A stretch of 64,000 nucleotides of DNA from a virus (IMGVR_UViG_3300026488_000246:83463-147462); one strand, 5' to 3'; positions 5,221 through 50,797 are shown, numbered from the stretch's first letter. Numbers and translations: made by a program. Notes: generated by a model from the letters alone, not told the origin.

Positions 5221-6102
5221 TGGGAAAGTCCTGCCTAGTACTGTGAAGGTTAAGCGTTGTATTGTGAGGTTAAGGTGGCGTCCCGTTCCGCAGAGGTTAA
5301 GTGTCGTATTGTCAGGGTCCCGTAGCGTCCCGTTCCGTAAAGGTATAGTTAGGCACAGTTAGGTTAGGGTTTTGTGAGGTTCTGTTACGTGAAGATTCTG
5401 TTGAGGTAACGTGTAGTTTGGTGAGGTGCTGGTTCTGTGCCGTGCTGTACTATTGAGGTTTTGTATCCATTAACATAAACATCTAAGAACTCTCTTATGA
5501 ACCAAATTAAAGGAGGAATTATGAAACCTACATGAAGCATTTACATTAAGAAAATCATAGTTGCAGTTAAACTATAAGAACCAACTCTCTGCAGTCAGGA
5601 GAGTTGGTTATCAGTTACTAAATCAAATGAAACTTTCAGAAGCAATTGAATTTAAGAAACTTAAAGACTACATAGCCAACCCAGGCAAGTTCTTTACAGA
5701 ACTTGTCAGGTTGGTAAAGAGCAGTTACCGCGTACCTGCATTCCAGAACTTCATGTTTTCTAATTGAATTTCTGGTTTAAGGTACGCATTGTATCGTCTC
5801 GTAGTGGTATCGTTTGGTCTGGTGCAGGTATTGTATAGTTTGGTGTTGTGTAGGTGGAGTCATGTTTAGCAATAGTTATGCGGTGTTTGGTGATGTGTAG
5901 GTGGCGTCATGTTTAGCAATGGTAATGCGGTGTTTGGTGACGTCATGGTGACGTATTGTTTCGTTATGTAGAGGTGTTGTACTGTTGTGGTTATGTCCTG
6001 TACTGTTGTGGTTGTGTTCTGTTGCGTACTGTTTCTGGGTCCTTGGAGCTAATCGTGGTTCCAAGGACCTCTCCTTTCACAACAAAAAAAGGAGGTAGAA
6101 AC
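5221..6102 (+). repeat. G+T-skewed, GC-elevated noncoding repeat island with two 47-bp tandem duplications
   Basis: First 47-bp tandem pair at 5247-5293 / 5294-5340 (AGGTTAAG.GT.GTATTGT.AGG...GCGTCCCGTTCCG). Second 47-bp tandem pair at 5848-5894 / 5895-5941. GTACTGTTGTGGTT occurs twice. Hairpins at 5578-5608 and 6038-6069. Almost no A-runs, in a genome that is otherwise AT-rich. Confidence 0.6.
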
Positions 6103-7164
6103 ATGGAGAACCTTATTCGCACTAAACCAATTATCAAACTCAGAAAGCTTGGTAACTACTACAAAGCATTTTTTGATTCATCAAAAGCTTTAACACTCAG
6201 AGATTTAGATGAGAATGTAATCTGGAAGGAAGAAGTAGTTCCAGAGTTGCTTGATATATCTATTACTAAGAAGTGTAATTTCAAATGTCCATATTGCTAT
6301 CAATCTGCAGGTGAAGGAATGCATATGACTATGGAAGATTTTGAATGGTTACTAGATTTTATGGGAGAAGATAAGCCTTTTCAAGTAGCACTTGGAGGTG
6401 GAGAAGTTATATGCAATCCTTGGTTTAAAGAAATGCTTAAGAAATGGTACGAGAATGGTGTAGTACCAAACTATACAACCAATGGTTATACTCTTCTTGA
6501 TGAAGATGCTGTTAAAGCCACAATCAAATATTGTGGAGGAGTAGCATTAACTTATCACTGGCATGATTTATCATTGTTTAAACAAGCTTTAGAAGTACTT
6601 ACTAAACTCCCAATTCAAAGAAACATTCACCTTATTGTTGGTAAACCACATGTAAATAAGCTTGAATCTGTTATTGAAGAACTCAAGGACAAAGTTGATG
6701 CTATAGTACTTTTGGAGTTCCATGACATAGGAAGAGGTAATCAATTCAAAGATTGGAAACTAAGCAGAGAAGATAAGGATCATATTAAGAAGCTTCTTCT
6801 AAAATATGGAAAACAAGGTAAACTTGCTGTAGGAGCCTCTCTAATTCCATTAGCAATTGAAACTGTTGTGGAGGATGGAGCTGATAAAACTTTCGTTGAG
6901 CAATTCTATTACAACCCTGAAAGTCTTCTTACTGGGTATGTAAATGAGCAATTACAATTAGCACCATCTTCTTTCTGGACAGGTGAAAAGATTGATCTTA
7001 AACAATTTAAATCTTTCAGAGAAGCTTACAATAGTCCTTTGATGAAAGAATTAAGGAAGAAACAATATGAATTAAGAAAGATATGTGATTATGCTTATAT
7101 ATGTAATGGTGGTATGCATGCTGATTGTTGTAAAGATTGTAGATTGAAGAAGGCTTTGGTTTAA
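6103..7164 (+). CDS. radical SAM enzyme with C-terminal Cys cluster (SPASM/twitch-like peptide-modifying type)
   Basis: RBS AAAGGAGG. CxxxCxxC motif (CNFKCPYC). GGGEV motif. C-terminal CDYAYICNGGMHADCCKDC. Confidence 0.75.
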   Translation: MENLIRTKPIIKLRKLGNYYKAFFDSSKALTLRDLDENVIWKEEVVPELLDISITKKCNFKCPYCYQSAGEGMHMTMEDFEWLLDFMGEDKPFQVALGGGEVICNPWFKEMLKKWYENGVVPNYTTNGYTLLDEDAVKATIKYCGGVALTYHWHDLSLFKQALEVLTKLPIQRNIHLIVGKPHVNKLESVIEELKDKVDAIVLLEFHDIGRGNQFKDWKLSREDKDHIKKLLLKYGKQGKLAVGASLIPLAIETVVEDGADKTFVEQFYYNPESLLTGYVNEQLQLAPSSFWTGEKIDLKQFKSFREAYNSPLMKELRKKQYELRKICDYAYICNGGMHADCCKDCRLKKALV

Positions 7165-7172
7165 CTATGTAT

Positions 7173-7198
7173 GGTGGGCTTTGTCCCACCAGTTTTTA
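7173..7198 (+). terminator. rho-independent terminator
   Basis: Stem GGTGGGCTTTGTCCCACC followed by a T-run. Confidence 0.7.
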
Positions 7199-7214
7199 TT
7201 CGATGTTGTTTCTT

Positions 7215-7267
7215 TAGTAACTAACCATATAATTGTATACAACTATATTACAAAATGAAACGCTTCC
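7215..7267 (+). promoter_or_regulatory. conserved intergenic cassette A (TAGTAACTAACCATATAATTGTATACAACTATATTACAAAATGAAACGCTTCC)
   Basis: Six copies in the window (7215, 7621, 8014, 41907, 43207, 55774). Each ends 10-20 nt upstream of a start codon. Confidence 0.55.
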
Positions 7268-7286
7268 TCAGTTTCTTGGAGGAAAC

Positions 7287-7640
7287 ATGGTTTCTTTTCT
7301 ACATCCATCGAGTATAACTGCTTCAGCTCTAGTATGTGCTACTTTTAGAAAAGTTAAACCAGCTAAGACTAAATCGATAACGTTTCTTAGTATTAGCTTT
7401 GATGATCTAATACAACATTTAGAATTACATGCAGAAGAAACATATTGTCGTTCATCAGGTGTAAAGCTCTCGATACAAACAAATGGAAATCCATCTAGAT
7501 TAATTGCAGAATTAATAGCACCAAAAATGGATGAGGAGTATGTAAGTCGACGAGAATCACTACAAAGGGAACTTGAATTGCTTGGTTACACAATTGTAGA
7601 TGGGTTCAGCATGAAACAGTTAGACCTAACCTTATTGTAA
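7287..7640 (+). CDS. small protein, divergent member of the TNSS N-motif family (paralog of 7681..8016)
   Basis: RBS GGAGG. Shares VRPAKTK...ISF.ELIQ.LELHAEE...RESLQ.ELELLG with the next gene. N-terminus SFLHPSSITAS. Confidence 0.6.
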   Translation: MVSFLHPSSITASALVCATFRKVKPAKTKSITFLSISFDDLIQHLELHAEETYCRSSGVKLSIQTNGNPSRLIAELIAPKMDEEYVSRRESLQRELELLGYTIVDGFSMKQLDLTLL

Positions 7641-7664
7641 CCATATACAACTTGAAACGTTTCC
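7621..7664 (+). promoter_or_regulatory. intergenic cassette A (short variant)
   Basis: CCTAACCTTAT...CTTGAAACGTTTCC. Overlaps the stop codon of the upstream gene. Confidence 0.45.
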
Positions 7665-7680
7665 GTGATACGGAGGTTTC

Positions 7681-8016
7681 ATGAGATCTTTAAACTCATC
7701 ATTCATTACAAACAGTAGCACAACTGTTACTTTCGTTAGATTAAGAAGAGTTAGACCAGCTAAAACCAAAATGATAACAATGTTGAATATTTCGTTTGAA
7801 GAATTAATTCAACAACATCTTGAGTTACATGCAGAGGAAGCAGTAGATGGCTTTGGTTCACAAATTATTGTTGAAACTGTAGAAGAACCAAGATTACTTG
7901 CTAGGCTATGCTCCACTAGTGTTTACTCTGAATATGAAGATAAACGAGAATCTTTACAAAAAGAACTAGAGCTACTTGGTTTTTCAGTGATTGATGAGGT
8001 CTCTGTTGATTGTTAG
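7681..8016 (+). CDS. small protein of the TNSS N-motif family
   Basis: N-terminus MRSLNSSFITNSSTTVTFV. Confidence 0.7.
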   Translation: MRSLNSSFITNSSTTVTFVRLRRVRPAKTKMITMLNISFEELIQQHLELHAEEAVDGFGSQIIVETVEEPRLLARLCSTSVYSEYEDKRESLQKELELLGFSVIDEVSVDC

Positions 8017-8060
8017 TTACCTAACCTTATACTATTTTTGTTAATTTAGAAACGTTTCCA
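8014..8060 (+). promoter_or_regulatory. intergenic cassette A
   Basis: TAGTTACCTAACCTTATA...TTAGAAACGTTTCCACCAATGGAGG. Confidence 0.5.
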
Positions 8061-8077
8061 CCAATGGAGGTTGCATA

Positions 8078-9289
8078 ATGTATCAAATCATAGTAAAGGA
8101 TAAGGATACAAACCAACTCTATAGGCTAAGCTATACAACTTACAGGAAAATGAAAGAGAATCCTGATTATCATTTATCGTATCCAGGGTTAGGACCAGTG
8201 ATTTCATCAAAAGAATTCTTTGATAAATTTGAAATAGTAGGTCCTACAACAGCTAAGGTTGATTATCCAACTATTAAGCAATGGTTGTATCAATCTGCTA
8301 GTTGTAAAGGACAGTATGTAATAGCGGAAGATAACGAAGGTAATAGTTATGTAACCTATGCACACACAACACTAGGTAAGCAAATTATCCAATTTATAAA
8401 AGGTGAAACTGATAGAATCTTGTATTATGGTCAAGATGTAACGGATATCATCAAACATCTTAATTTTCGGTTTCTAACTCATACTCAATATAGTAAATGG
8501 AAACAAGATAAGGAAGTGAAGCCACTTAGAACCTTCATATCTACCAAACTTGGTATACGTCCTTCTGTGGATGTTGAAAAACTTTTTCACCATTTCTTTT
8601 TCAAATCAAAGCTTACAGGTAAAACGTATACCTTATCCATTAACTACACCAGGAATGATTTTGATCATAGGCTAAGCTTTGAGGAAGTATACTATAAGAA
8701 ATGCCCTGCATGGCTCAAAATTCGCATTTCACCAAAGCTATTCTTATCTTTATTTGAATTCACGGGTGAAGAGTTTTATGGAATGAGATCTAGACCTATG
8801 CATTATCCATCTTTATTTGAATCTGATGAAGCTTTATCTATTCGTCATAATAGACTCTATGATCCACAATTAGATATGGTAATCAACCTCAAAGATAATC
8901 GTTGTGTCATAGATTGGTTGTTTAAAGGCGAATTTGTGAAGTATGGTGTAGCATTCAAACATACAGTTTCACACTTTAACGTTATAACCAAAGAAATTCT
9001 TAGCAAAAAGAAAGCTTTAACATTCTACAACTATTATCTGCTTCGTGGACTACATGAGAAAGATCTACCTTCCATAACAAAGCTTAATAGACCAATGGAT
9101 GAGTTTTATGTTTATCTTGTACTTAAGAATGGTAGAATCTTAAAGCATGCTGTTGTAGCTAAGCATATTTCACAAGTTTATCATAAACATAAGGAAATGT
9201 TGGATAGCATTATAGTTTTCAAAGTAGCAGGACGTTTCAATTATCTTGAAGGTAAAATCAAAGAGGTTCGTAAATGTTTGTTGAAGTAG
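8078..9289 (+). CDS. hypothetical protein
   Basis: 403-aa ORF directly downstream of cassette A and its embedded RBS. Confidence 0.7.
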   Translation: MYQIIVKDKDTNQLYRLSYTTYRKMKENPDYHLSYPGLGPVISSKEFFDKFEIVGPTTAKVDYPTIKQWLYQSASCKGQYVIAEDNEGNSYVTYAHTTLGKQIIQFIKGETDRILYYGQDVTDIIKHLNFRFLTHTQYSKWKQDKEVKPLRTFISTKLGIRPSVDVEKLFHHFFFKSKLTGKTYTLSINYTRNDFDHRLSFEEVYYKKCPAWLKIRISPKLFLSLFEFTGEEFYGMRSRPMHYPSLFESDEALSIRHNRLYDPQLDMVINLKDNRCVIDWLFKGEFVKYGVAFKHTVSHFNVITKEILSKKKALTFYNYYLLRGLHEKDLPSITKLNRPMDEFYVYLVLKNGRILKHAVVAKHISQVYHKHKEMLDSIIVFKVAGRFNYLEGKIKEVRKCLLK

Positions 9290-9660
9290 GTTTGCTTAGA
9301 TGCTCTAGACCTTTACCCATGAAACATAGGGGATCTTTGTGGATCCCTGTTGCCTCTATATTTCGACGTTTCAAACATAATGTTTTGCTGTTTTACAATA
9401 CGTTTATATATGAACCTATAACTACCTTTAAGCAATACGGAATTTTCTATAACTTAGGATCTATTATGGACGAGGATTGTCAGCGATTTATTGCCATTAA
9501 TGCTAAATCCCATGAAAAGTTTCTTAAGTTTTATAGAGAAACTAGGCATGAGGATTCATGGTCACAATTTGTTTACAAAAGTATTAAAACTTTACCTGAT
9601 TTCTTGCTAGAATTCAATGTTGAAAAACAATGTTTTGAGAGGTTTGAAATTGGTTGTTGA
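9274..9660 (+). CDS. hypothetical protein
   Basis: ORF with GAGGT RBS. Overlaps its neighbours. Confidence 0.45.
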   Translation: MFVEVGLLRCSRPLPMKHRGSLWIPVASIFRRFKHNVLLFYNTFIYEPITTFKQYGIFYNLGSIMDEDCQRFIAINAKSHEKFLKFYRETRHEDSWSQFVYKSIKTLPDFLLEFNVEKQCFERFEIGC

Positions 9661-10165
9661 AGGAGACGCATATGCAACAGTTGATATCATAAAACTTTAC
9701 AGGAAACTATCACCAGAACCAAACAGATTCATTCAGCTCTCAGATTCCAATCCTTTGAAAGATTTAGGATTGCTTGCAATGTACTATCGAAAGGGTCGTT
9801 ACTATTTAGCAGATCCTGAATATCCCGATTATGAGATTACTTGTCCATTAAGTTTATGGGAAAAGTCAAAACAATATTACACACGCATATCAACTTTACT
9901 CATATATGTTATTGATGAGTATGAGACCGTACTGAAGAAGGACTACGATCTAACACTAGATTATTGGCCATACTTCGTTTGCAGAAAGCATTATGAGCTT
10001 TATGGTCCTTATACACCTTTACGAGTTGTTTTCAAGTTTAATTCTAATGGTTGGTTAAAGGATATCCAAGTTACTGGTCTTGAAGGCAGTCAATATGAAC
10101 AAGACACAAAACAACCAACATCTTTCATAAGCAAAGTTAAAAGGTTCTTGCGAGGCGTGCTATGA
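9617..10165 (+). CDS. hypothetical protein (start uncertain)
   Basis: 182-aa ORF. No clear RBS. Confidence 0.4.
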   Translation: MLKNNVLRGLKLVVEGDAYATVDIIKLYRKLSPEPNRFIQLSDSNPLKDLGLLAMYYRKGRYYLADPEYPDYEITCPLSLWEKSKQYYTRISTLLIYVIDEYETVLKKDYDLTLDYWPYFVCRKHYELYGPYTPLRVVFKFNSNGWLKDIQVTGLEGSQYEQDTKQPTSFISKVKRFLRGVL

Positions 10166-10683
10166 ACCCTATGGTGTATGGGGATCATAAATCGAAACCT
10201 GAAATACTTCATCAAGAAGAGCGAGATCGCTTCAGGATTATGATTTTATCATTTGGTACTCATCCATGTGCTTATATTGGAGTACCAAATGATAGTCCTT
10301 TAGTTAACCTCGATTATGGTTTGTTGGATAACTTCATTAATGTGCATGGTGGATTTACGTTTGGTTGTCAGGGTTCAGATGAACGCTACCCTTTTATAGC
10401 AGGTTACTATTGGTATGGTTGGGATTATGCTCACCTGGATGATTGGTTAGGATGCCACTTTGAAGATGAATGGATAAAAGATCTATGGCAAGCTATAAGA
10501 CCTAAGAAATGGACTACAGAAGAAATATATGAGCATTGTTTAGTTGCTTTAGAGCAATTCAAACAACTTGAAAAACGAATGTTACATGATGTTGAATTCT
10601 ATGATTCATTGATTCAATGCAACCTCAATTCAGAAGATCCTCTCCGTTTCTCTCATTACATTCCTTCTGCACCTGATAGATAG
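10162..10683 (+). CDS. hypothetical protein
   Basis: 173-aa ORF. Overlapping start and stop suggest translational coupling. Confidence 0.55.
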   Translation: MNPMVYGDHKSKPEILHQEERDRFRIMILSFGTHPCAYIGVPNDSPLVNLDYGLLDNFINVHGGFTFGCQGSDERYPFIAGYYWYGWDYAHLDDWLGCHFEDEWIKDLWQAIRPKKWTTEEIYEHCLVALEQFKQLEKRMLHDVEFYDSLIQCNLNSEDPLRFSHYIPSAPDR

Positions 10684-10727
10684 AAACTTTTATTTCCAAC
10701 TATGAAAATCATACATGAGGTGTAAGA

Positions 10728-11678
10728 ATGACAAAAGAGCAAGTCAAACAAGAATTACTGAAATACTTCCCTAACCAAGAAGAAGCTATAAAAACTCTAA
10801 CACAACTTGGTCTTTCAGAGGATGAAGCAAAATCAAGAGTTAACTGTTCAATTAATGAAATAGTGATTTATGAAGCAGCTCATAGGATCATTGATAGGTT
10901 AGCTTCATATTCAGATGACATTTTAGAAAGGTTTGCAAAGATTCTCAATGTAGAAGATAGTAGATTTTCATTCAAAACAGAATTCCTATTCAGAGCTGTA
11001 TACTTCCTTAAGAAAAAGGCTTATGCACAATACATCATTGAGAGAGAAGGAGCTCTCATTCAAGAAATAGCTCAATCAAACATTGGAGTTAAGTCGGATG
11101 TACCGGAATTAACTCGTATAATGATAAGAGACCTATTCAAAGTTATAATGTATACGAATTGTGATCAAACTCTGATAAATCGAGCATTAACGCTATGGGA
11201 GAGCAAATTTAGAAAACTGATCCGAGAAAGGTCAGTATCAATATGTACTCCTTGTGGATTCAATAAGGAACTTAAAGAATACAAGAACGTTAATGATTGC
11301 ATTAGAGGTATGCTTCTCTATAACGAGCTTATAGGACAAGAATACTTCAAGGTTGGTATGAAAGGGTTCAAAATTTACTGTAATGGTTTTGATTATACTA
11401 AGCTTAGATTGGATGCAAAACAATTCCATGAGAAACTTATGAATGTTGCTAAGAAATTGGATGAGCTTAGCGGCAAACAAACATATACTAAGAAACCAGA
11501 AAAACTACTTGACAGAATTGTTATACCCGATGATTCTGAAAGAATTCCTGATTGGATCAAGCTTGATGAGAAAACAATAATGGATAAGGTTTTCGTTTCT
11601 AAAGCCAATGAAATCCTAGAACCTTTAGGCATACAACTTGATACAGGTACATCTGTGGCATTACAAGATTTATTCTAG
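10728..11678 (+). CDS. hypothetical protein
   Basis: 316-aa ORF with RBS GAGGTG. Confidence 0.7.
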   Translation: MTKEQVKQELLKYFPNQEEAIKTLTQLGLSEDEAKSRVNCSINEIVIYEAAHRIIDRLASYSDDILERFAKILNVEDSRFSFKTEFLFRAVYFLKKKAYAQYIIEREGALIQEIAQSNIGVKSDVPELTRIMIRDLFKVIMYTNCDQTLINRALTLWESKFRKLIRERSVSICTPCGFNKELKEYKNVNDCIRGMLLYNELIGQEYFKVGMKGFKIYCNGFDYTKLRLDAKQFHEKLMNVAKKLDELSGKQTYTKKPEKLLDRIVIPDDSERIPDWIKLDEKTIMDKVFVSKANEILEPLGIQLDTGTSVALQDLF

Positions 11679-11694
11679 CGAGAGGAATACTAAC

Positions 11695-12096
11695 ATGTCA
11701 TTAAGAAAGACTCATCAATTAATGCTTAGTTGGCCAACCTTAGAAAAAGGGACAACTTTAGGAATTTCTGAAAGGTGTTTAGATACCTTTATGGAGCTGG
11801 TTAAAAATGCTAAAGGGTTACCAGTATATCAGTTTGTGTCCGTTGACTCAATACTAGATTCTCCTCATCAATATCAAATTGGAGAGGTTAGCAATGTAAA
11901 GTTTGAAGGTCATCCATTGATAACTGTAGAATACTATTACGGTAAAGCACCGAAAGATGAATCCGTTCTTGTTCCTATCACGTTAGGAAAGCCTGTTCCT
12001 AACTACGAAATCTATCATGTAAGTATAGAAGATATAGAGGAACTCATAGGATTCATGCTTTATCCTTTGTCATTGATCAAGCAACATCTAAACTAA
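11695..12096 (+). CDS. hypothetical protein
   Basis: RBS GAGAGGAA. ATG at 11695. Confidence 0.55.
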   Translation: MSLRKTHQLMLSWPTLEKGTTLGISERCLDTFMELVKNAKGLPVYQFVSVDSILDSPHQYQIGEVSNVKFEGHPLITVEYYYGKAPKDESVLVPITLGKPVPNYEIYHVSIEDIEELIGFMLYPLSLIKQHLN

Positions 12097-12111
12097 AGTA
12101 TGAGGTAGCTT

Positions 12112-12471
12112 ATGATCTCCACAGTTTGCAGATCATTTGTGACTAATTCTAGCACATCTACGACTATTGTTTACTTTCAAAAAGTAGGACCTATAGATGC
12201 AGAAGAAGTAAGGAATACGCTTCCAGAACCTTTCAAAAAGTATGCTGATGATATTATCAAAGCTTTGTTATCCATAAGAGCAGCTGAAGTATTTGTTGTG
12301 ATTGAGTATGATAACTATGGGATTATGTCTTATATAATCAGCAAATGTCCAAGAAAGCAATATAGTCCACTTGTAACGATTCCTGGTGGTTACATAGATG
12401 AACGTTTACAGGATTGCTTTCAGAAACTGAAAGGTTTAAGACTTGTTGATTCTTATAGCTTTATACACTAG
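12112..12471 (+). CDS. small protein of the TNSS N-motif family
   Basis: N-terminus MISTVCRSFVTNSSTSTTIVYF. Immediately upstream of a radical SAM gene. Confidence 0.7.
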   Translation: MISTVCRSFVTNSSTSTTIVYFQKVGPIDAEEVRNTLPEPFKKYADDIIKALLSIRAAEVFVVIEYDNYGIMSYIISKCPRKQYSPLVTIPGGYIDERLQDCFQKLKGLRLVDSYSFIH

Positions 12472-12485
12472 GATGGGAGGTTCTA

Positions 12486-13556
12486 ATGAAAATTGGATAT
12501 GGAGTTAACTGGTTTCTTACAAGAAAATGTAATCTAAAGTGCTCCTATTGTGCAGTAATCAATATGAAAACGTTTCAGGAAGCTTATGGTCACATTGATC
12601 CATTCAAACAAGATGTTGATATTGAAGAAGCTAAAGAATTCATCAAAAGATTAAAGAAGCATAATCCAGATGCATTTCATATGTTTTTGGGTGGTGAACC
12701 TACTGTTTACAAGCATCTTGTAGAATTGGTTGATTTCTGTAACAAAGAAGGTGTATTGTATACTGTCATTACAAATATGACCGATTACTCTTACAACAAA
12801 CTTAAGCAGATTATAGATGAAGTGGGATATCTTAATGGACTAAGCTTTACTGTTGATCCCGTTCTATGGGATGAAAACTATCCGAAGGATGATGATAGAT
12901 ACAGAAAATCAAAGGAAGCTTACGAGAAATTCATAACATTTAGAGATGATCCCAGAATCAGAGAATTTGTTGGTATAGTTGGAGTTGATAGTCAGAATAT
13001 CAAATATCTGCATAGAATGTGTGACGATCTAACTAAAGCTGGTGTTTGGATAGATCTGATTCTGCTTGAAACAAAGCTTAATAAGTACTACGATTTCCCA
13101 TCACCATTAGACTATGATTTACTGGTTTGGGATACAGAGAAACATAGAAAGATTCTTATGGAAGTTTACGAGAAAGCTGAAAAGGGAGAATACACTGTAT
13201 TATTCCATCCTGTAATCAAATACAAAATGGTTCCTAATCTTCCACAAAAGTATATTTGCACCATTGATAAAAGAATGGACACCATGACTATTGATGCTGA
13301 TGGAAAACTAAGGCTATGTTTAAGAATCAGAGGAGTTAAAACACAAGAATTTCATATGCTTGATATTCTTGATGAAAACGGAAATCTAACTGATAAGTTT
13401 CAAGAAGCTCTTAAAGCTATGCAATGGGATAAAAAGAATTTCTGTTATGGATGTCAATGGACATGCCCTATGGCTGGTGAATTGATTGCTGATGGTATTA
13501 TGAGTCCAGAATTGATGAATCATAGAAACATAGAAATTCAACCAAAAACAAAATAA
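12486..13556 (+). CDS. radical SAM enzyme, SPASM-like
   Basis: CxxxCxxC motif (CNLKCSYC). FLGGEPT motif. C-terminal NFCYGCQWTCPMAG. Confidence 0.75.
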   Translation: MKIGYGVNWFLTRKCNLKCSYCAVINMKTFQEAYGHIDPFKQDVDIEEAKEFIKRLKKHNPDAFHMFLGGEPTVYKHLVELVDFCNKEGVLYTVITNMTDYSYNKLKQIIDEVGYLNGLSFTVDPVLWDENYPKDDDRYRKSKEAYEKFITFRDDPRIREFVGIVGVDSQNIKYLHRMCDDLTKAGVWIDLILLETKLNKYYDFPSPLDYDLLVWDTEKHRKILMEVYEKAEKGEYTVLFHPVIKYKMVPNLPQKYICTIDKRMDTMTIDADGKLRLCLRIRGVKTQEFHMLDILDENGNLTDKFQEALKAMQWDKKNFCYGCQWTCPMAGELIADGIMSPELMNHRNIEIQPKTK

Positions 13557-13569
13557 AAGATAGACAGAG

Positions 13570-14745
13570 ATGAATAGCGTTAAAGAAACATACAGAAACG
13601 TCAACATATTTATTGACGATAGCAATCATGGATTTCTTCAGGGTATAACTTCAGATCATAATGGTAATGTAATCGTGTGTGGTCATGATGAAGATTTCAT
13701 CAGTTTGCGTATAACTAAATTCGATAACGTTTTAAGGGATGTTAAACAAGAAATAGTTTTAAGAGATGAAAAATGCAAATATTTTTACGGGATAACAGTT
13801 GACTCTGATAACGTATTTGTATGCGGTATGATTGACTATGATTTCTGCATTGTTAAGCTTAATAGTAGTCTAAATCTGATTAAGCAAGTAATAGTAGATA
13901 TTGGGGAAGCAACAGCCAGCTATGGAATGGCTACAGACTATAATGGAAATGTGTTTGTATGTGGGTCTCATGACAAAGATTTCTACATAGCTAAGCTGAA
14001 TAACGATTTGAATATTGTTAAACAGATAACCATTAACAATGATGGAGATGGAATTTTTCGAAATCTAGCTACGGACTGTAATGGAAACGTGTTTGTATGT
14101 GGTTACATTAATACCGGTATACTAAACAACGGCCTTTATATAGCGAAGTTTGATAATGATTTGAATGTCATCAAACAGATGGTAATCGAAAGTGGTAAAC
14201 GTAGTTATCTTATCGGAATAACTATTGATGATAACGGAAACGTATTTGTATGTGGGAAGACTTGTAATGAATGTTATGTGGCTAAGATCGCTAATGATTT
14301 AAATCATATTAAACAAATAGCAATCAATGGTGGTAAGAAAACCGATTTTCATGGGATTTCTACAGATCCTCATGGAAATGTATTCGTATGTGGACAAACC
14401 AAAGAGAATCTTAGTTCGAACTTATGCGTTGCAAAATTTGATAACAATCTACTTCTTGTTAAGCATGTTGTATGTGCTTGTGATGGAGTAACAATCAGTC
14501 GTGACGGACTAACAATTGATTCTAATGGTAACGTATTTACATGTGGGACATTTCATAGTGATTTCGTTAATACTCCCTTCATAATTAAATTCAATGATAA
14601 CCTTGATTATCCTGATAAGTTGAAAGCTGGTTCTTATACATTCACCTTTAGTGAACCAACTTGGATTTCTACTGTACAAGATTATCCTGTTACAGTAGAA
14701 AACTGGGTTCCCATTATTCAGAACTGGATACCACGAGTGGTATAG
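13570..14745 (+). CDS. beta-propeller repeat protein (NGNVFVCG / IAKFDNDLN repeats), fibre-like
   Basis: About 9 repeats of roughly 40 aa. C-terminal SYTFTFSEPTW...W..Q.W module shared with 14765 and 19827. Confidence 0.65.
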   Translation: MNSVKETYRNVNIFIDDSNHGFLQGITSDHNGNVIVCGHDEDFISLRITKFDNVLRDVKQEIVLRDEKCKYFYGITVDSDNVFVCGMIDYDFCIVKLNSSLNLIKQVIVDIGEATASYGMATDYNGNVFVCGSHDKDFYIAKLNNDLNIVKQITINNDGDGIFRNLATDCNGNVFVCGYINTGILNNGLYIAKFDNDLNVIKQMVIESGKRSYLIGITIDDNGNVFVCGKTCNECYVAKIANDLNHIKQIAINGGKKTDFHGISTDPHGNVFVCGQTKENLSSNLCVAKFDNNLLLVKHVVCACDGVTISRDGLTIDSNGNVFTCGTFHSDFVNTPFIIKFNDNLDYPDKLKAGSYTFTFSEPTWISTVQDYPVTVENWVPIIQNWIPRVV

Positions 14746-14764
14746 AAGTTTAACTAAAAAGAAG

Positions 14765-15991
14765 ATGGAGAAAATGAACAAAGCTACAGAACCATATGAA
14801 AGTGTCAGTGTATTTACTGGCAACAACGTTGAATATAATAATCTTCTTGGTATGGTTACAGATCATGATGAAAATGTGTTTATATGTGGAGAGGTTTTTG
14901 TTAAACGATGGTTCAGAGCTGGTTTCGATATTGTTAAATTTGATAGCACTTTAAACTTCATCAAATATATAGCAATAGGAAATAATGAATACAACATTGA
15001 ACTGCATGGAATGATAGCAGACGGTACTGGTATCATATTTGTTTGTGGAGAAATTGGTAATCATTATAACGACGATTTCTACATAGCTAAACTTGATGGT
15101 AATTTAAATCTTGTTAAGCAAATTGCTATCAATAGTGGTAAACCATATAATCGTCTTTATGGAGTAACAGTAGACTCCAATGGGAACGTGATCGTTTGTG
15201 GAAGTACTAATGATGGTCACTACTATAATGGTTATATTGCTAAATTCGATAACGATTTAAATCCAGTTAAGCAAATTACTATCGACGATAGATATTGTGG
15301 TGATCTTTATGGGATAGCCGTTGATTCCAATGATAACATATTTGTTTGCGGTGCCACGAAAGGTAAACCCTACGTTGCCAAACTTGATAATAAACTAAAT
15401 GTTATCAAACAGATATCCATTGATATTGGTGAACCTGGCTACCTCAATAAGGTGACCATTAGTTCCAGTAATAATGTTTTCATAGGTGGTATCTACGATG
15501 GGCATATTTATGTAGCTAGATTTGACGATGATTTGAACCTTATTAAACAAGTTACTATTAATACTGGAACTAATAATAGCTTTTACAGTTTCGCTGTAAA
15601 CTCTTACGATGATCTATTTATATATGGGCGAATTAAGAACTATCCTGATTGGGACTTCTATATCGCAAAACTTGATAATGAGTTATTTCTTCTTAGACAA
15701 GCAATTATTGATGGTGGTCATCATGTTACTTTACCTTTAAAGGATGAAATACTTGTATGCAGACGAAGTATCACTTATTCTGCTGATAATATGCTTATAG
15801 CTAAATTCGACAAAAACTTAAGTAATCCTAGTGTATTGAAAACAGGTTCTTATACATTTACTTTTAGTGAACCAACATGGTTAGTGATTGTACAGGATTG
15901 GCCTGTCATAACAGAAGATTGGGTTCCTACTGTACAGAATTGGGCACCACGAGCGGCAAACAGTTTCATTGTAACTGAAGAGTTCGCATAG
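14765..15991 (+). CDS. beta-propeller repeat protein, paralog of 13570
   Basis: Same repeat unit and C-terminal module. Confidence 0.65.
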   Translation: MEKMNKATEPYESVSVFTGNNVEYNNLLGMVTDHDENVFICGEVFVKRWFRAGFDIVKFDSTLNFIKYIAIGNNEYNIELHGMIADGTGIIFVCGEIGNHYNDDFYIAKLDGNLNLVKQIAINSGKPYNRLYGVTVDSNGNVIVCGSTNDGHYYNGYIAKFDNDLNPVKQITIDDRYCGDLYGIAVDSNDNIFVCGATKGKPYVAKLDNKLNVIKQISIDIGEPGYLNKVTISSSNNVFIGGIYDGHIYVARFDDDLNLIKQVTINTGTNNSFYSFAVNSYDDLFIYGRIKNYPDWDFYIAKLDNELFLLRQAIIDGGHHVTLPLKDEILVCRRSITYSADNMLIAKFDKNLSNPSVLKTGSYTFTFSEPTWLVIVQDWPVITEDWVPTVQNWAPRAANSFIVTEEFA

Positions 15992-16103
15992 AAGCTATAA
16001 ACTCACCACTAGTTACACTATCTTGGGTTATCGAGGGTCTAATGAAATCTGTAAATCTTTTAGTTGATGAGCATGCAGAATTCTAGAAAAAAAGGAGGTA
16101 GTT

Positions 16104-16436
16104 ATGGGAGTATCAGTTGCTGTGTTCAAGAAAGGGAATAAACTCTTCAAAGTAAGGACAAATACTAAGATTGGTAAACAGTTACTTCAAAGAGCCAATG
16201 GAAAACGTGTTAAAATTACTTATCGTGGTATTGATGTGACTACCAAACTAAAGGATGTTGAATTGCTTTATCAATATGAAGTGTTTGACACAATCAAGCA
16301 ACAACGCCTAAGAAAAGCTCTCTCAAAAGTACCATCAGTTACAGCATTTCTACTTGATGCTAAAACTAAGAAACTAACAAAGAAAGATAAGCAAATTCTT
16401 GAGTTTTACGGAAATCCTGAAGAAGAGGAGGTGTAA
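16104..16436 (+). CDS. hypothetical basic protein
   Basis: RBS AAAGGAGG. Lys/Arg-rich. Confidence 0.6.
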   Translation: MGVSVAVFKKGNKLFKVRTNTKIGKQLLQRANGKRVKITYRGIDVTTKLKDVELLYQYEVFDTIKQQRLRKALSKVPSVTAFLLDAKTKKLTKKDKQILEFYGNPEEEEV

Positions 16437-16437
16437 C

Positions 16438-16581
16438 ATGACAAAAGAGGCTGTAGAAATCCTTGAAAAGGTACAGGCTGTAGGATTTGACACAGCAATT
16501 GCACATGCTACAGATGCTGAAGTACAAGCAGGAGCTGCATGTGGACAACTTAGTATCATTGCTGAAGTTGAGAATGAATAA
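16438..16581 (+). CDS. 47-aa Ala/Gly-rich peptide, candidate RiPP precursor
   Basis: RBS AGGAGGTG. Sequence MTKEAVEILEKVQAVGFDTAIAHATDAEVQAGAACGQLSIIAEVENE. Followed by a hairpin and then a radical SAM gene. Confidence 0.45.
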   Translation: MTKEAVEILEKVQAVGFDTAIAHATDAEVQAGAACGQLSIIAEVENE

Positions 16582-16589
16582 CTGATATC

Positions 16590-16635
16590 GGGGATCTGGA
16601 GAAGATTCAATCTCCAGATCTCCACAACCTTTTTC
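16590..16635 (+). terminator. hairpin (terminator/attenuator) between the peptide gene and the radical SAM gene
   Basis: GGATCTGGAGA / TCTCCAGATCC, 11-bp stem followed by TTTTTC. Confidence 0.55.
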
Positions 16636-16644
16636 GAGGGTCAC

Positions 16645-17376
16645 ATGAAAGAAGGATTGAGAATTGTTGCTACTTATCAATGTAATAGAAATTGCAAGTT
16701 TTGTTATCAAGCCTCTAAAGAATCACCATACTTGGATACTGAAACATTGAAGAAATGTTTAGATTATTTGAAGTTTACTAAGAATTTCATTCCTATCTAT
16801 GTAACAATCCAAGGTGGTGAAGTTACAATTGACATGGAAAGATTACGAGAAATTGCAAAATTGGTTGATTACTACTATCCACAAGTTTTCAGGAAATCTG
16901 TCACAAGCAATGGTGATGCAGATGTTAGCGATTATGAATCATTAGCTTTGTATGGTATAACTCATTTATCATTTAGTTTGCACGGTAAGAATAAGAAACT
17001 GGAAGATAAACTCAAGTATCTTGCAAAAAGTGGATTCTTTACTATAAGAGTTAATTGTTTTGCTCATCAAAACATAGAAAATCTTAGGTATGTTTACGAT
17101 TTTTGTGCAAGCAATAAAATTCAACTTACATTTTGTGAAGATCTGAGAAATAAGATTGTTGAAGACGTTACTGATAAAATCGTAAGATTTGTTGTTGGAC
17201 ATTCCGATGTAGAAATCATAAGACATAAGTTTCAACATATAATCATTGATAACAAAAGAAAGTTTAGATGTTGGATCTATAAGCATTTAGACAGTTATGA
17301 TTACAACAACTATATCATTCTTCCGACAGGAAAGATTGTCGATAATTTTGATTTGGTTATTCAATCCAAACTGTAA
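16645..17376 (+). CDS. radical SAM enzyme (short, no C-terminal Cys cluster)
   Basis: CNRNCKFC and QGGEVT motifs. Confidence 0.7.
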   Translation: MKEGLRIVATYQCNRNCKFCYQASKESPYLDTETLKKCLDYLKFTKNFIPIYVTIQGGEVTIDMERLREIAKLVDYYYPQVFRKSVTSNGDADVSDYESLALYGITHLSFSLHGKNKKLEDKLKYLAKSGFFTIRVNCFAHQNIENLRYVYDFCASNKIQLTFCEDLRNKIVEDVTDKIVRFVVGHSDVEIIRHKFQHIIIDNKRKFRCWIYKHLDSYDYNNYIILPTGKIVDNFDLVIQSKL

Positions 17377-17392
17377 TCAAAGAGGGAAAGAA

Positions 17393-18262
17393 ATGGAAAT
17401 TGTTAAAATCAGAAAATTTACTAATGGTTGGGTAGCAGCAATCAGGTTATCAGATGGAAGACTTATTGAGAGCACAAACACATGCCTTCCTTTACATACG
17501 GAATTGAGAGGTTTCAATAACAAAAGAACTACGAATGCAATACTATCCTATGATTTTACGAAAACTTACTTCCATGAAAAGAATATGGTAGGTGTTTCGA
17601 CACAATCTGGTTGTCCAATTATGTGTAAGTTTTGTGCAGTAAATGCTGTAACTAGAAAACATGGATGGAGAAACTTAACTGATGATGAAATTGTGCAACA
17701 AGTTGATTTTGCATTAAAGGTAACAAAAGACCTATTTAACTATGATTACTTTGAAAGTAAGCCTAAACTATTCAGAATCTTGTTTACAAGAATGGGCGAG
17801 CCATCCTTAAACATCGAAAATGTAGTTAATGCCATACAAAAACTAAAACATAAGTTTCCAGAAGCAAGAGTTCAGATTTCAACAATTGGAATTCCTGAAT
17901 CAAAAGATCTTGTTCATGAATTAATGAAACTTGAAGATGAGCTATCAGATCATGATTTCCTTGAACTTCAGTTCTCAATTCATTCAACAGATATGAATTT
18001 TAGGAGATGGTTACAAACTCCAAGAGTTATGGACAATTCAGAGATCAATAAACTTGCACAGGAATTCTATTACAAACATCCAAGAAAGTGGAAGGTTACA
18101 TTAAACTTTACTTTATCTCAGAAAACTCCATTTGACGTTAATGAATTACGAAAACAGTTTGATCCTGGTTGTGTATTCATAAAACTATCACCATTAAATG
18201 AGAACCTTGTAAGTAAATCTAACAACTTGAAAACTTTAATTAGGCAAGAAAACTATGTTTAA
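17393..18262 (+). CDS. RlmN/Cfr-family radical SAM methyltransferase-like
   Basis: VSTQSGCPIMCKFCAV, MGEPSLNIENVV, ISTIGIPE and FSIHSTD motifs, collinear with the RlmN motifs. Confidence 0.65.
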   Translation: MEIVKIRKFTNGWVAAIRLSDGRLIESTNTCLPLHTELRGFNNKRTTNAILSYDFTKTYFHEKNMVGVSTQSGCPIMCKFCAVNAVTRKHGWRNLTDDEIVQQVDFALKVTKDLFNYDYFESKPKLFRILFTRMGEPSLNIENVVNAIQKLKHKFPEARVQISTIGIPESKDLVHELMKLEDELSDHDFLELQFSIHSTDMNFRRWLQTPRVMDNSEINKLAQEFYYKHPRKWKVTLNFTLSQKTPFDVNELRKQFDPGCVFIKLSPLNENLVSKSNNLKTLIRQENYV

Positions 18263-18719
18263 GCTTGATTTTGGAAGCGGTTACAATCCTCAACCTGGTT
18301 GGTATACGTGTGACGTAACAATGAATTGTGATTTCTATTTTGACAAATCAACCTACAGAATCTTAGATATATCAGATAATTCTGTAGATTTCATTAGAAT
18401 GAGAAATGTATTGCATCATATCCCTGATATTCAAAGATTGCTTTTTGAATTTGAAAGAATCTTGAAACCTGGTGGTAAAGTGATTATTATTGATATCAAT
18501 CCACACCATTACAAAACTAACTTCTTCTTAGATTGGTTATGGTATAGATGGATCTATCCGAGATATGAAGTGTGGTTCTCTAGGACGTATAGAGACATTA
18601 AAGATTATTTATCAGAAACATCTTTCGTCATTGTGAAAAGAATGTATCATGTATTTCGAGAAATAATCATACTTGAAAAACAACTATACAAACAAGGAGG
18701 TTTAACATGGCTTACTTAA
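18255..18719 (+). CDS. class I SAM-dependent methyltransferase-like protein
   Basis: FGSGYNP and ILKPGGKVIIIDIN motifs. Confidence 0.45.
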   Translation: MFKLDFGSGYNPQPGWYTCDVTMNCDFYFDKSTYRILDISDNSVDFIRMRNVLHHIPDIQRLLFEFERILKPGGKVIIIDINPHHYKTNFFLDWLWYRWIYPRYEVWFSRTYRDIKDYLSETSFVIVKRMYHVFREIIILEKQLYKQGGLTWLT

Positions 18720-19826: not shown

Positions 19827-22800
19827 TTACTCAGTCCATAAGTCAACTTGAAATCTATCAACATAAACGTCTTTATCACCATTAATAACTAGTCTTAGAT
19901 ACCTAGCATTCTTAGATATATCTTTATAAGTCATAGTTACCCAATCTGAGTTGTAAGTGTAAGTTTGGGATTCAATTGGTTTAGTATTCTTAGGTATTAC
20001 GACCTTTGTTATTGAAGTAAGTTCTTCTTTTGTTATGATTTTGACTTCTCCAATACCTCTTCTATCGTAGTAGTAATCTACTTCATTAGGTGTAAATGAA
20101 ACTGGTTGTGGAGACCAACTTTGTGTGGTGGGTGTCCATGATTGTGTAGCAGGTGACCAACTCTGTGTAGTAGGTGCCCATGATGGTTCATTAAATGTAA
20201 ATGTATAAGAACCTACTGTTACTGAATTAGGATGATCTAAATCATTATTAAATTTAGCTATGTAGAAATTCCGATGGCTATTATGAATATCATAAACATA
20301 ACCACATACGAATATATTACCATTGGAATCAGTTGTTACACCTTGAAAAATTTCATCATTTGTACTATCAATAGTAATCTGTTTAATTAGGTTTAAATCG
20401 TTGTCAAATTTAGCTATATAGGAATCGTCATTAGAACCATTATAAGTGCGCCCGCATACGAATACATTGTTATTGGAATCTGTTGTTATTCTGTAAAGAT
20501 TATCATTTCTACTACTTTCAATAGTTATTTGCTTAATAAGATTCAAATCATTATCAAATTTTGCAACATAGAAATTATAATCTGAGGAATTGCTATAACT
20601 ATGTCCACATACAAATACATTATCATAAGAATCTGTAATTATTCCATGACAAATATCTGAATTGCCGCTATTAATTGTTATCTGTTTAATGAGATTTAAA
20701 TTGTTATCAAATTTTGCAATATAGAAATTCAAAACAGAACCATTATAAGTATCGCCACATACAAATATATTACCATTAGAATCTACAGTAATATCATAAA
20801 GATGATCAACATAACCACTATTAATAGTTATTTGTTTAATTAGGTTTAAGTCATTATCAAATTTAGCTATGTAGAAATCTTCATTAAAACCGCATACAAA
20901 TATATTACCATTGGAATCTGTAGTTATTCCATGAAATTCATCACCTTTACCACTGTCTACAACAATATGTTTAACAAGATTTAAACTGTTATCAAATTTT
21001 GTAATGTAAAATTCCAAGCGAGAATCATTATCAGCATCAACTTGCCCGCATACAAATACATTATCATTGGAGTCTACAACTATATCTAAGAACCTACTAT
21101 AAGACTTATCAATGATTATTTGCTTAGTAATGTTGAAATGATTGTCAAATTTTGCTATATATGCTTTATTATCTAAGTTCCCACATACAAATACATTATT
21201 GTTAGAATCTGTTACTATTCCGTAAAGCTGACCTTGCTTACTATCATTCCCAACCACAAAAGTTCCTAGTTCCTTCACAACTTCAACTTTTGATACTTCC
21301 TTATCTTCATCATTAACCTTTATAACATCTCCAGATCTTACTAAATCCTTATCTAGTTCTTTAACGACTACATAATTGTTTCCAGTTTTGATTATCTGAG
21401 AAGTAACATCTAAATCTTTCCAAGTACATCTCTCATAAACATCTTCAAATGCAAATTCTACTCTTATGCTATTTTCTTTGTATATATCTGATGGTGGATT
21501 TTTGAGATTAAGAGAAGATATATCAACTTTATAGACATTTTCCTTAACTGTGTAAGAACCTTTATCCCAAGTATAAGATACTTCTGTTGGAGCCCAAGAT
21601 TGAGTAGTAGGAGACCAACTTTGAGTTGTTGGTGCCCATGATTGTGTAGTAGGTAACCAAATTTGATCAGTTGTAGTCAAATCCGGTTCAGTAAATAAAA
21701 ATGAATAAGACCCAACTGTTATTGAACTTGGATGATCAAGGTTATTGTTAAATTTAGCTACAAAGAAATCATAATTAGAACTGTCTCCTATATATCCACA
21801 TACAAATATATCACCAGTAGAGTCTATAACTATATCTCTTGGTATATCATGTTTTCCACTATTTATTTGAATCTGCCTGATTAAATTCAAATTGCTATCA
21901 AATTTAGCTATGTAAAAGTCTTTATTAGAACCATTATCAATACTACCGCATGCAAAAATATTTCCTTCAGAATCAATTGTTAATCCGAGTAATTCACCTC
22001 CCATATTTTCAATGGTGGCTTGTTTAATCAAGTTCAAATCATTATCAAATTTAGCTACATAAAGTCCTCTATCATGATCATTATGAGTATGACCGCATAC
22101 AAATACATTACCATTGGAATCTGTAACTATACCAACGAGTATAGCATAAACTCTAGCGTCAATAGTTATTTGCTTAATAAGATTCAAATCATTATCAAAC
22201 TTACCTATGTAGAAATCTTGATCAGAACCATTATAAGTATATCCACATACGAATACATTTCCGTTAAAATCAATAGTTATATTGTAAAGCCAATCATTAG
22301 TGTTGTTTATAGTTATTTGCTTAATAAGATTCAAATCATTATCAAACTTACCTATGTAGAAACTGTTATTGGTATGACCACATACAAATACATTATTATT
22401 GGAATCTATTGTTATTCCAAGAAATTCTTCACTGTTACCGCCATCTACAATAACTTGTTTAACTAAATTCAAATTGTTATCGAATTTAGCTACATAGAAA
22501 TCTTCTTTAGAACCATTACGAGTATATCCACATACAAATATGTTTCCATTAGAATCCGTTGTTATTCCTTGAAGATAATCAATGTAACCGCTATCAATAG
22601 TAACTTGTTTAACCAGATTTAAGTCATTATCAAGTTTAGCTATGTAAAAATCCTGGTTGGGACCATTATTAATACAACCACATACAAATATATTACCATT
22701 GGAATCAGTTGTTATTCCATAGAGATAATCATCTTTACCGCTGTCACCAACAGCCATATAATACTCAACATTTTCAGTAGTTTCTTCAATCTTATTTACA

Positions 22801-23073: not shown

Positions 23074-23586
23074 TTACTCCCCAGCCCATAAATCAACTTT
23101 GAAATCGTTTACATATGTATCTTCAATACCTTCAAGTTTGACTCTCATCGCTCTACCTTTCTTATTAACAGCTTGGTATCTTGATTTAATAACATCTTGG
23201 TCTGACAAGTAGGTTCTATATTGTAGAGTTTGAAGTCTGGTTCTTTGAGGAATGATAACTGAAGTTATTGCTGAAGATTGTTCAGGAACTGTGATTTGGT
23301 AAACAATAGATAAAGAGTATTGAAAGATTTTTCTAGCATGATCATCTACTATATACATTTTGATACCGTTTGAATGGAAGAAGATACCTCTTGGATAGAT
23401 ACTCAGTACACCAACATAAAATTCAGATACAAAAGACGCTGTTGTTATATCCCATGGAGTGGAAAGACTATATTGATAAATACTATCACTATCAAAACCT
23501 ACTACATACATTTTGGTACCATCTGGATGAAAGAAGATATCTGATGGGGCGATTATCTTGACCACTAACACTGTAACTAGATACAA
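23074..23586 (-). CDS. C-terminal part of the same fibre protein, reached by a frameshift in a G4 run
   Basis: No real start codon. Carries the same FFHPDGTKMYVV...YQYSLSTPWDITT repeats. C-terminus YVNDFKVDLWAGE matches the 19827 C-terminus. Confidence 0.5.
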   Translation of the reverse strand: MYLVTVLVVKIIAPSDIFFHPDGTKMYVVGFDSDSIYQYSLSTPWDITTASFVSEFYVGVLSIYPRGIFFHSNGIKMYIVDDHARKIFQYSLSIVYQITVPEQSSAITSVIIPQRTRLQTLQYRTYLSDQDVIKSRYQAVNKKGRAMRVKLEGIEDTYVNDFKVDLWAGE

Positions 23587-44717: not shown

Positions 44718-44730
44718 AGGAGGTACATCA

Positions 44731-50751: not shown

Positions 50752-50797
50752 TAGAAATTAAGTTTCTAAAAAATGAAAACAAATTGGGAGGATGATT

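Follow-up and report, generated by a model that had tools for sequence, protein, structure and literature searches.

RlmN and Cfr, the class A radical SAM methylases of 23S rRNA A2503 and tRNA A37, which methylate C2 or C8 of adenine, are textbook self-methylating radical enzymes, and Cfr is in addition a clinically important resistance determinant. Cys118 of RlmN resolves the covalent intermediate of the reaction, and the N-terminal domain of RlmN has an RNA-binding role. MoaA and viperin use nucleoside triphosphates (NTPs), and GrcA/YfiD, an autonomous glycyl-radical cofactor, is a small stand-alone protein which gives a catalytic C-terminal loop in trans. In RlmN and Cfr, the methyl group of S-adenosylmethionine (SAM) is received by Cys355 and Cys338, respectively, each located in a flexible C-terminal loop (PMC3702613). 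We analyzed a 64,000-nucleotide (nt) stretch of viral DNA (IMGVR_UViG_3300026488_000246:83463-147462, hereafter the window) in which four radical SAM genes, A to D, lie between positions 6,103 and 18,719. With modest confidence, we favor the view that this 12-kb stretch contains two independent systems acting as proposed below. System II would be a split class A radical SAM enzyme composed of gene D and a 47-amino acid (aa) protein; in System I, the products of genes A and B would act with small proteins which share an N-terminal F-x-T-N-S-S motif (TNSS proteins).

A first-pass annotation, made from the sequence alone, had identified the four genes by their CxxxCxxC motifs (A, CNFKCPYC; B, CNLKCSYC; C, CNRNCKFC; D, GCPIMCKFC), and these assignments were confirmed. 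Of all open reading frames (ORFs) with 90 aa or more across the 64-kb window, only five contain the motif, namely A to D and an SBBP repeat protein in which the match is due to chance. All four enzymes scored above the 29.5-bit gathering score of the Pfam Radical_SAM model PF04055 (A, 34.8; B, 51.6; C, 46.9; D, 35.4 bits), and none reached the curated cut-off of an NCBIfam subfamily. The best scores were 30–31 bits against a cut-off of 284 for MoaA, 20–26 against 131 for NrdG2, and 29–50 against 180 for prokaryotic viperin, while no QueE model appeared among the NCBIfam matches listed (the top 25 each for A, B and C, and all 21 of D). The first-pass annotation had held that assignment to nucleotide or cofactor pathways would speak against its proposal of a peptide- or protein-modifying system; none of the four is confidently a QueE, NrdG or MoaA enzyme, yet D falls into a nucleic-acid-modifying class and C has a MoaA/viperin-like predicted fold. 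A viperin-type defense role for A, B and C was rejected because their matches to the PADLOC pVip models are confined to the N-terminal cluster motif and they fall far short of the NCBIfam viperin cut-offs.

Gene D and the 47-aa Cys-loop protein

The features of this block are as follows:
16438-16581, plus strand: 47-aa Cys-loop protein with a putative methyl-carrier Cys35 in AACGQL (alignment to RlmN; neighbors; peptide hidden Markov model, HMM; ribosome-binding site)
16590-16623, plus strand: perfect 13-bp hairpin separating the Cys-loop ORF from gene C (-27.3 kcal/mol)
16645-17376, plus strand: gene C, small radical SAM enzyme with a MoaA/viperin-like predicted fold (PF04055, 46.9 bits)
17393-18262, plus strand: gene D, RlmN/Cfr-like class A radical SAM core (TIGR00048, 63.4 bits; RlmN in the PDB, E = 4.8e-7)
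18255-18719, plus strand: minimal class I SAM methyltransferase (Methyltransf_11; phrog_5399), with its first 8 nt overlapping the end of D

The only specific similarity of gene D is to RlmN and Cfr, with which it shares the GCxxxCKFC cluster motif and the barrel. A profile built from six D-type proteins matched residues 112–283 of E. coli RlmN with 58.8 bits (envelope from residue 93). However, D scores far under the curated cut-offs of this family (63.4 versus 290 bits for TIGR00048, and 37–40 versus 468–550 bits for the Cfr models), and it differs from RlmN in three further respects. It starts at approximately RlmN residue 60–90 and does not contain the RlmN N-terminal domain (residues 1 to ~60). 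It has an invariant Gly opposite Cys118 in the profile alignment, and the three cluster ligands are the only invariant Cys in the D family. Finally, it stops just past the strand matching RlmN ‘KINLIPWNP’, before the Cys355 loop.

The counterpart of this loop is found on the separate 47-aa protein. Its sequence contains VQAVGFDTAIAHATDAEVQAGAACGQLSII, which HMMER aligned to the RlmN segment GF..(15 aa)..AACGQL, and AACGQL is the segment of E. coli RlmN that includes Cys355. The ORF is preceded by a GAGGAGG ribosome-binding site, independent assemblies also call it as a gene, and the hairpin that follows it is unusually stable (z = -3.97; none of 200 shuffled sequences folded equally well).

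The same arrangement recurs in other phages. Searching IMG/VR identified 255 relatives of D, and we counted neighbors at the best 80 of these loci, which represent 22 lineages at 85% identity. In 79 of the 80, a same-strand ORF of 41–63 aa carries the pattern ...AIAT.[AS]E[IV]..[GAN]AACGQ[LM]..., and it mostly abuts or overlaps the stop codon of D; across these 80 loci no other neighbor of D is conserved. Several cultured phages and one crAss-like gut phage also have both genes. Two cultured phages in which D had seemed solitary proved to contain the Cys-loop ORF as well. In Yersinia phage P778 it is ORF008, a single Cys-loop module. In Vibrio phage D479 it is VPHD479_0342 (L002 8800-9081), just downstream of D, which contains two tandem modules (...AGFDAGLAIATDAEV.AGAACGQMAIL), so that this 93-aa protein has two candidate catalytic Cys.

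In more distant relatives the two parts are joined. Exhaustive HMMER searching yielded 1,037 D homologs, and among the best 150 representatives the xCGQ module is fused to the C-terminus in 59, fused to the N-terminus in 2, and absent from 52, which include all of the closest homologs of D. The profile of the small ORF matched the fused termini of these unsplit homologs with E values of 7.7e-11 (P0273, N-terminal), 1.1e-7 (P0271), and down to 7e-4. Three independent lines of evidence, from the cultured phages, the IMG/VR loci and the fused relatives, identify the 47-aa ORF as a class A radical SAM Cys-loop module that has become detached, and D together with this ORF as one split enzyme. Thus, the first-pass suggestion that the 47-aa ORF encodes a peptide substrate gives way to one in which it is part of the enzyme.

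Three variants of this family were also observed. In P0273 (315 aa) the position of the module at the N-terminus amounts to a natural circular permutation, and the 601-aa D-type protein P0272 has an intein-like insertion immediately past its cluster motif. In five lineages (L088-L094-type, e.g., L090 2499-3998), the pair of D and Cys-loop genes lies directly 3' of a phage nicotinate/nicotinamide phosphoribosyltransferase gene (NF006629, 510 bits).

Two further genes accompany D and the Cys-loop ORF in the window. The class I methyltransferase-like gene noted in the first-pass annotation was borne out (Methyltransf_11, 40.1 bits against a cut-off of 21.2; phrog_5399, E = 2.5e-30); members of its family stand alone in Bacillus Herelleviridae phages. 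Gene C encodes 243 aa with three extra invariant Cys (C138, C154, C164). Its predicted structure (pLDDT 90.8) most closely resembled MoaA (1tv7, TMq 0.74) and viperins (~0.65) in Foldseek searches. Nevertheless, C is only 14–16% identical to these enzymes and scored 30.9 bits against the MoaA cut-off of 284 and 28.9 against the prokaryotic viperin cut-off of 180; its extra Cys lie inside the barrel region, and it has no C-terminal cluster motif of the MoaA type. We found 20 homologs of C, and each recovered C locus contains a D-type gene, the Cys-loop ORF directly 5' of C, and the small methyltransferase downstream. These are L080, L082 and L085 (46–49% identity to C) and L095 and L097 (28–31%), with a partial set on the fragment L084; L101 has D, the loop ORF and the methyltransferase without C. 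The common order is D, loop, C, methyltransferase, and that of the window is loop, C, D, methyltransferase. Because C and the methyltransferase are rare among the 80 D loci (each in 3), they appear accessory to a D and loop pair which would be self-sufficient. Their presence suggests further steps on a nucleotide-like substrate.

The homology of D to RlmN, its separation from the Cys loop, and the fusions in other genomes were observed directly; the chemistry which follows is proposed by analogy with RlmN and Cfr. D would provide the [4Fe-4S]/SAM barrel, and the 47-aa protein would dock onto it and provide the mobile Cys loop in trans. SAM bound to the cluster would methylate the Cys of AACGQL, a second SAM would give rise to a 5'-deoxyadenosyl radical that abstracts hydrogen from the S-methyl group, and the resulting thiomethylene radical would add to an sp2 carbon, most likely that of an RNA or DNA purine. 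Because D has a Gly instead of the resolving Cys118, the adduct would have to be resolved by another thiol or may persist: an external thiol, perhaps from a second copy of the small protein, might free the methylated product, or the small protein might stay attached. In some of the phages, gene C and the small methyltransferase would belong to the same operon as accessory enzymes. D has neither the RlmN N-terminal domain nor informative neighbors that would point to a substrate. GrcA/YfiD offers a functional analogy only; it belongs to another enzyme family, uses a glycyl radical instead of a methyl-Cys, and has no sequence relation to System II.

TNSS proteins and their pairing with genes A and B

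Genes A and B and the TNSS genes of the window are the following, all on the plus strand:
6103-7164: gene A, radical SAM enzyme whose SPASM-type C-terminus is reduced (PF04055, 34.8 bits)
7287-7640: TNSS paralog with a degenerate N-terminal motif, SSITASA (47% identity to the 7681 paralog, E = 1e-26)
7681-8016: TNSS paralog, SFITNSSTTVTF (motif; BLAST links to 12112, 43275 and 48183)
12112-12471: TNSS paralog, SFVTNSSTSTTIV, directly 5' of B (TNSS HMM, E = 2.9e-4)
12486-13556: gene B, twitch/SPASM-type radical SAM enzyme (PF04055, 51.6 bits; invariant C-terminal Cys)
43275-43643: TNSS paralog (TNSS HMM, E = 1.8e-9)
43750-44154: TNSS paralog (TNSS HMM, E = 1.7e-9)
48183-48584: TNSS paralog (TNSS HMM, E = 9.1e-9)
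48599-49015: TNSS paralog (TNSS HMM, E = 8.6e-6)
50792-51235: TNSS paralog, GFTTNSSSVCKV (TNSS HMM, E = 6e-9)
55001-55447: TNSS paralog, GFVTNSSSYVAC (TNSS HMM, E = 1.8e-8)

The described enzymes that A and B most resemble are the SPASM/twitch maturases (anSME, SuiB, PqqE, SkfB, CteB) and BlsE, with which they appear to share the fold and the Cys motifs of the C-terminal auxiliary clusters. Bacterial ‘radical SAM/SPASM’ proteins of 344 aa show ~30% identity to gene A, downstream of which lies a terminator-like hairpin (7172-7191). The C-terminal Cys clusters which the first-pass annotation attributed to both enzymes were confirmed, with three invariant Cys in A (C328, C334, C346) and five in B (C258, C278, C320, C323, C327; 30 homologs). 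The nearest folds of the predicted structure of B are SPASM/twitch enzymes. Neither A nor B matched the Pfam SPASM model, and a bacterial homolog of A, P0227, passed the SPASM-domain model TIGR04085 (29.5 bits against a cut-off of 27). A and B each have a conserved gene for a small partner, much as maturases come with their substrates; however, in contrast to those systems, the partner is a protein of ~120–145 aa with the F-x-T-N-S-S motif and not a leader-core peptide or a sulfatase, A and B reach no known subfamily model, and phage A is missing part of the SPASM Cys.

The TNSS family, already noticed in the first-pass annotation, proved larger than described there, with nine paralogs in the window. 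Three of these fall within the 12-kb region, with two immediately following A and one immediately preceding B. Their only common feature is the N-terminal motif [GS]F[IV]TNSS[ST]. When bacterial and phage members are aligned, F7, T9, N10, S11 and S12 alone are invariant or nearly so, and the remainder of the proteins is 11–25% identical; this restriction of invariance to the N-terminus suggests the signature of a recognition or modification site and not a catalytic fold. TNSS proteins had no match in Pfam, NCBIfam, PADLOC or PHROG and no significant sequence relative in the PDB.

TNSS genes recur with genes A and B in other viruses. A TNSS HMM found 40 ORFs in 598 kb around B-family genes (13 of 31 loci), versus none in 1,265 kb of control sequence (other viral radical SAM loci, 642 kb; D loci, 623 kb). 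In 7 of the 31 B loci, the end of a TNSS ORF is within 150 nt of the start of B, as it is in the window. At L249, a relative of A (46% identity) is followed by four TNSS paralogs.

A similar pairing exists in cellular genomes. In a survey restricted to one genome per species we found 304 relatives of A and counted the best 80 loci. An ORF of ~135 aa starting with MKIKxDF[VI][TS]NSSSTSF lies directly 5' of the A-like gene and on the same strand in 69 of these, in Proteobacteria, Bacteroidota, Firmicutes, Cyanobacteria and methanogens; it was not found directly upstream at the Asgard-archaeal loci L168-L173 and L189. In Agrobacterium, for example, a 131-aa protein starting MKIKLDFVSNSSSTSFVYIS is encoded directly 5' of the A-like radical SAM/SPASM gene. 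NCBI names the small TNSS-type protein ‘hypothetical’. Ahead of the pair, 64 of the 80 loci have a gene for an ~880-aa protein which combines an N-terminal SMEK/restriction endonuclease-like domain (PADLOC, 1e-51) with an Avs2-like STAND NTPase (8e-27). PADLOC does not list the three-gene cassette as a system and has no model specific to its TNSS or radical SAM members. Of the cassette, just these two parts are present in the window, where tblastn with the Agrobacterium NTPase gave nothing at E ≤ 1.

The association of TNSS genes with A and B is an observation; how the proteins act is proposed. A and B would work with TNSS proteins, most likely modifying the invariant N-terminal F-x-T-N-S-S motif, with an anSME-like oxidation or a cross-link at N-S-S as the obvious options. 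The first-pass annotation had listed TNSS proteins as candidate substrates. Their partnership with the enzymes is supported (69 of 80 cellular loci, L249, and 7 of 31 B loci), whereas their status as substrates is only plausible. Since the cassette is conserved in bacteria and archaea, mostly behind an Avs2-like STAND NTPase, the TNSS and radical SAM/SPASM pair probably belongs to virus-host conflict, and the phage copies may act in conflict with host or rival systems. The FxSxx-COOH peptide and radical SAM/SPASM system (Kaur et al., PMC7159879) was considered as a match for the TNSS pair and rejected, since that actinobacterial system has its motif at the C-terminus and requires a metallopeptidase.

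The only close IMG/VR relative of B (65% identity) is on L003, between Gat-QueC-like and QueE-like genes and a deoxynucleoside monophosphate (dNMP) kinase gene. This block (L003 7598-14679), in which the B homolog lies among a Gat-QueC fusion, a QueE-like radical SAM gene, a dNMP kinase gene and the gene of a 470-aa protein, is probably a 7-deazaguanine DNA-modification cluster, and a PTPS gene occurs near B in a T4-like lineage. We rejected a 7-deazaguanine pathway for B because the window and L003 have B alone in common, because L004, an 87%-identical relative, has other neighbors, and because the PTPS linkage reflects synteny in a single lineage.

Competing explanations

Several observations count against the two-system view. 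The HMM of the 47-aa peptide ranked RlmN first among 2,158 sequences, yet with 7.7 bits and an E value of 0.34, and phmmer searching of the PDB with the peptide alone returned noise; as this match is weak alone, the case rests on the fused homologs and the gene context. A core such as D, which has neither Cys118 nor the RlmN N-terminal domain, may perhaps be no methyltransferase at all. For System I, the phage A subfamily has lost several SPASM Cys, and the best structural match of B is BlsE, which acts on a nucleoside and not on a protein. The association of B with TNSS genes comes mostly from a single syntenic phage lineage, and no TNSS gene was seen at two of the four loci with close homologs of A (L079 and the 3.8-kb L248). 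Finally, TNSS proteins could be partners of these enzymes instead of substrates.

The last point can be extended into an explanation in its own right, which we regard as possible, if doubtful: TNSS proteins would be accessory subunits, regulators or effectors, and A and B would act on a small molecule or nucleotide. Three findings argue the other way. A short invariant N-terminal motif in otherwise divergent proteins fits a recognition or modification site, the phages have many paralogs per enzyme as would be expected of substrates, and the nucleotide-gene neighbors of B are not conserved.

A second explanation is compatible with a split enzyme and narrows its role. C, D and the methyltransferase would carry out base hypermodification, in which C acts on a purine NTP in the manner of MoaA or viperin, D with its loop protein C-methylates this purine, and the methyltransferase adds another methyl group, so as to protect phage DNA or alter host tRNA or rRNA. 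The resemblance of C to the NTP-using MoaA and viperin, the membership of D in a class that methylates C2 or C8 of adenine, and the RNA-repair genes of the window (polynucleotide-kinase-like and Rnl1) all fit this scheme. However, no deoxynucleoside triphosphate-handling, transglycosylase or DNA-modification gene is linked to the block at any locus, D and the loop ORF mostly occur without C or the methyltransferase, and fold similarity at 15% identity leaves the substrate of C unfixed. We think the full scheme rather unlikely.

A bolder proposal, to which we assign a low probability, departs from the RlmN/Cfr precedent. Because D has no resolving Cys and the methyl-carrier Cys is on a free, well-expressed 47-aa protein, the system may not methylate. 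Instead, the 47-aa protein could become joined through an S-CH2 bridge to a purine of host RNA or DNA, or be spent as a stoichiometric methylene donor. This would amount to a radical SAM ‘peptidylation’ of nucleic acid in many phages, crAss-like gut phages among them. Separately, the TNSS and radical SAM/SPASM pair could represent a new protein modification common to Avs-linked defense and phage counter-measures.

The first-pass annotation had proposed a system resembling those that make RiPPs (peptides synthesized on the ribosome and modified after translation). In that case the 47-aa ORF would be a precursor modified by C, D and the methyltransferase, for example through a thioether cross-link or methylation at its single Cys. 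The position of the small ORF directly 5' of C at every C-bearing locus, and the strong ribosome-binding site and stable hairpin that flank it, a pattern common for precursor genes, are what one would predict. Moreover, the best NCBIfam match of C is the ranthipeptide maturase PapB, though at 35.6 bits against a cut-off of 340. Yet the small ORF occurs without both C and the methyltransferase at 77 of the 80 D loci, the conserved core of that ORF is the RlmN Cys355 loop, and 61 of 150 representatives of D-type enzymes carry this module as a fusion at one terminus or the other. C lacks a SPASM domain and is nearest in fold to MoaA and viperin. No protease, transporter or RiPP recognition element domain was found in the region, and the TNSS partners, at ~120–145 aa, are not peptides. 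A RiPP-type precursor is decidedly improbable.

It is very improbable that the four genes are an accidental accumulation in a variable part of the genome, unconnected in function. A, B and the C/D block do each occur alone elsewhere (L003 has only B in common), yet such independence holds between the systems and not within them: an operon of D, the loop ORF, C and the methyltransferase is seen repeatedly, and A and B recur with TNSS genes. By the same token, the separation of A, B and the C/D block in other genomes speaks against the single 12-kb system first envisaged.

Genomic setting and significance

The remaining features of the window are consistent with a large phage. Its gene content includes an Rnl1-type RNA ligase, UvrD, a T4-type topoisomerase II and giant propeller/fibre-like proteins, and its IMG/VR relatives agree with this origin. 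No close DNA relative was found among 50,697 deposited phage genomes, tblastn searches of phages with B and C gave N-terminal motif matches only, and an Rfam scan of the whole window returned no RNA family. A 161,948-bp metagenomic contig carries a 100% identical copy of gene C.

Two ‘NGNVFVCG’ genes lie between B and the Cys-loop ORF:
13570-14745, plus strand: SBBP beta-propeller paralog (PF06739, 87.3 bits)
14765-15991, plus strand: SBBP beta-propeller paralog (PF06739, 42.0 bits)

The first-pass annotation had taken these fibre paralogs as possible substrates; they were not found at any related A, B, C or D locus and, on present evidence, stand outside both systems. Each is ~400 aa and paralogous to repeated modules of a 1,063-aa protein encoded on the minus strand, with which both share a C-terminal ‘TFTFSEPTW...QNW.P’ segment. 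The 1,063-aa protein has another giant propeller protein (1,082 aa) as its neighbor; the minus-strand pair occupies 19827-23018 and 23492-26740.

Upstream of gene A, a non-coding stretch of ~880 nt contains repeats between 5246 and 6033, namely 47-nt direct repeats at 5246-5344 (78% identity) and 5838-5961 (up to 92%), as well as 21-nt repeats at 5806-5845 and 5978-6022, without an Rfam match. These repeats could be iterons, an origin or promoter arrays. A shared sequence (...TATACAACT..GAAACG[TC]TTCC) precedes genes 7287, 7681 and 8078 (at 7233-7290, 7624-7664 and 8019-8059) and may be a phage-specific promoter or regulatory motif. An RNA-repair-type set opens the window on the plus strand (80-2497), comprising an AAA_33/polynucleotide-kinase-like gene (80-613), the gene of a 244-aa protein and the T4 Rnl1-type RNA ligase gene (1370-2497), and is followed by a UvrD helicase gene (2961-4418). 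Farther along are a TnpB/IS605 OrfB-like ORF (39344-40720, plus strand; Cas12f1-like TNB domain, 1.9e-10; OrfB_IS605) and a T4-like split topoisomerase II, with GyrB-like and TopoIV-A-like genes at 44617-46602 and 51258-52640 (plus strand). The ~4.6 kb between the two topoisomerase genes contains the TNSS paralogs 48183, 48599 and 50792.

Searches of open-access full text returned no description of phage RlmN-like enzymes, a split RlmN/Cfr or the TNSS cassette, and searches of the same texts for the SMEK domain with radical SAM and for phage P778 gave neither system. Both systems are apparently undescribed. A natural split RlmN/Cfr-like enzyme, present in hundreds of phage genomes, would offer a ready two-component system for dissecting mechanism, and it prompts one to ask which host targets phages methylate or cross-link. 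It also affects annotation practice, as small ORFs beside radical SAM genes are not automatically RiPP precursors. TNSS proteins with their radical SAM/SPASM enzymes constitute an unannotated family with a candidate modification site, a broad spread beside Avs-like NTPases in bacteria and archaea, and paralog expansions in big phages, and their pairing provides a testable lead to a possible new protein modification in phage-host conflict.

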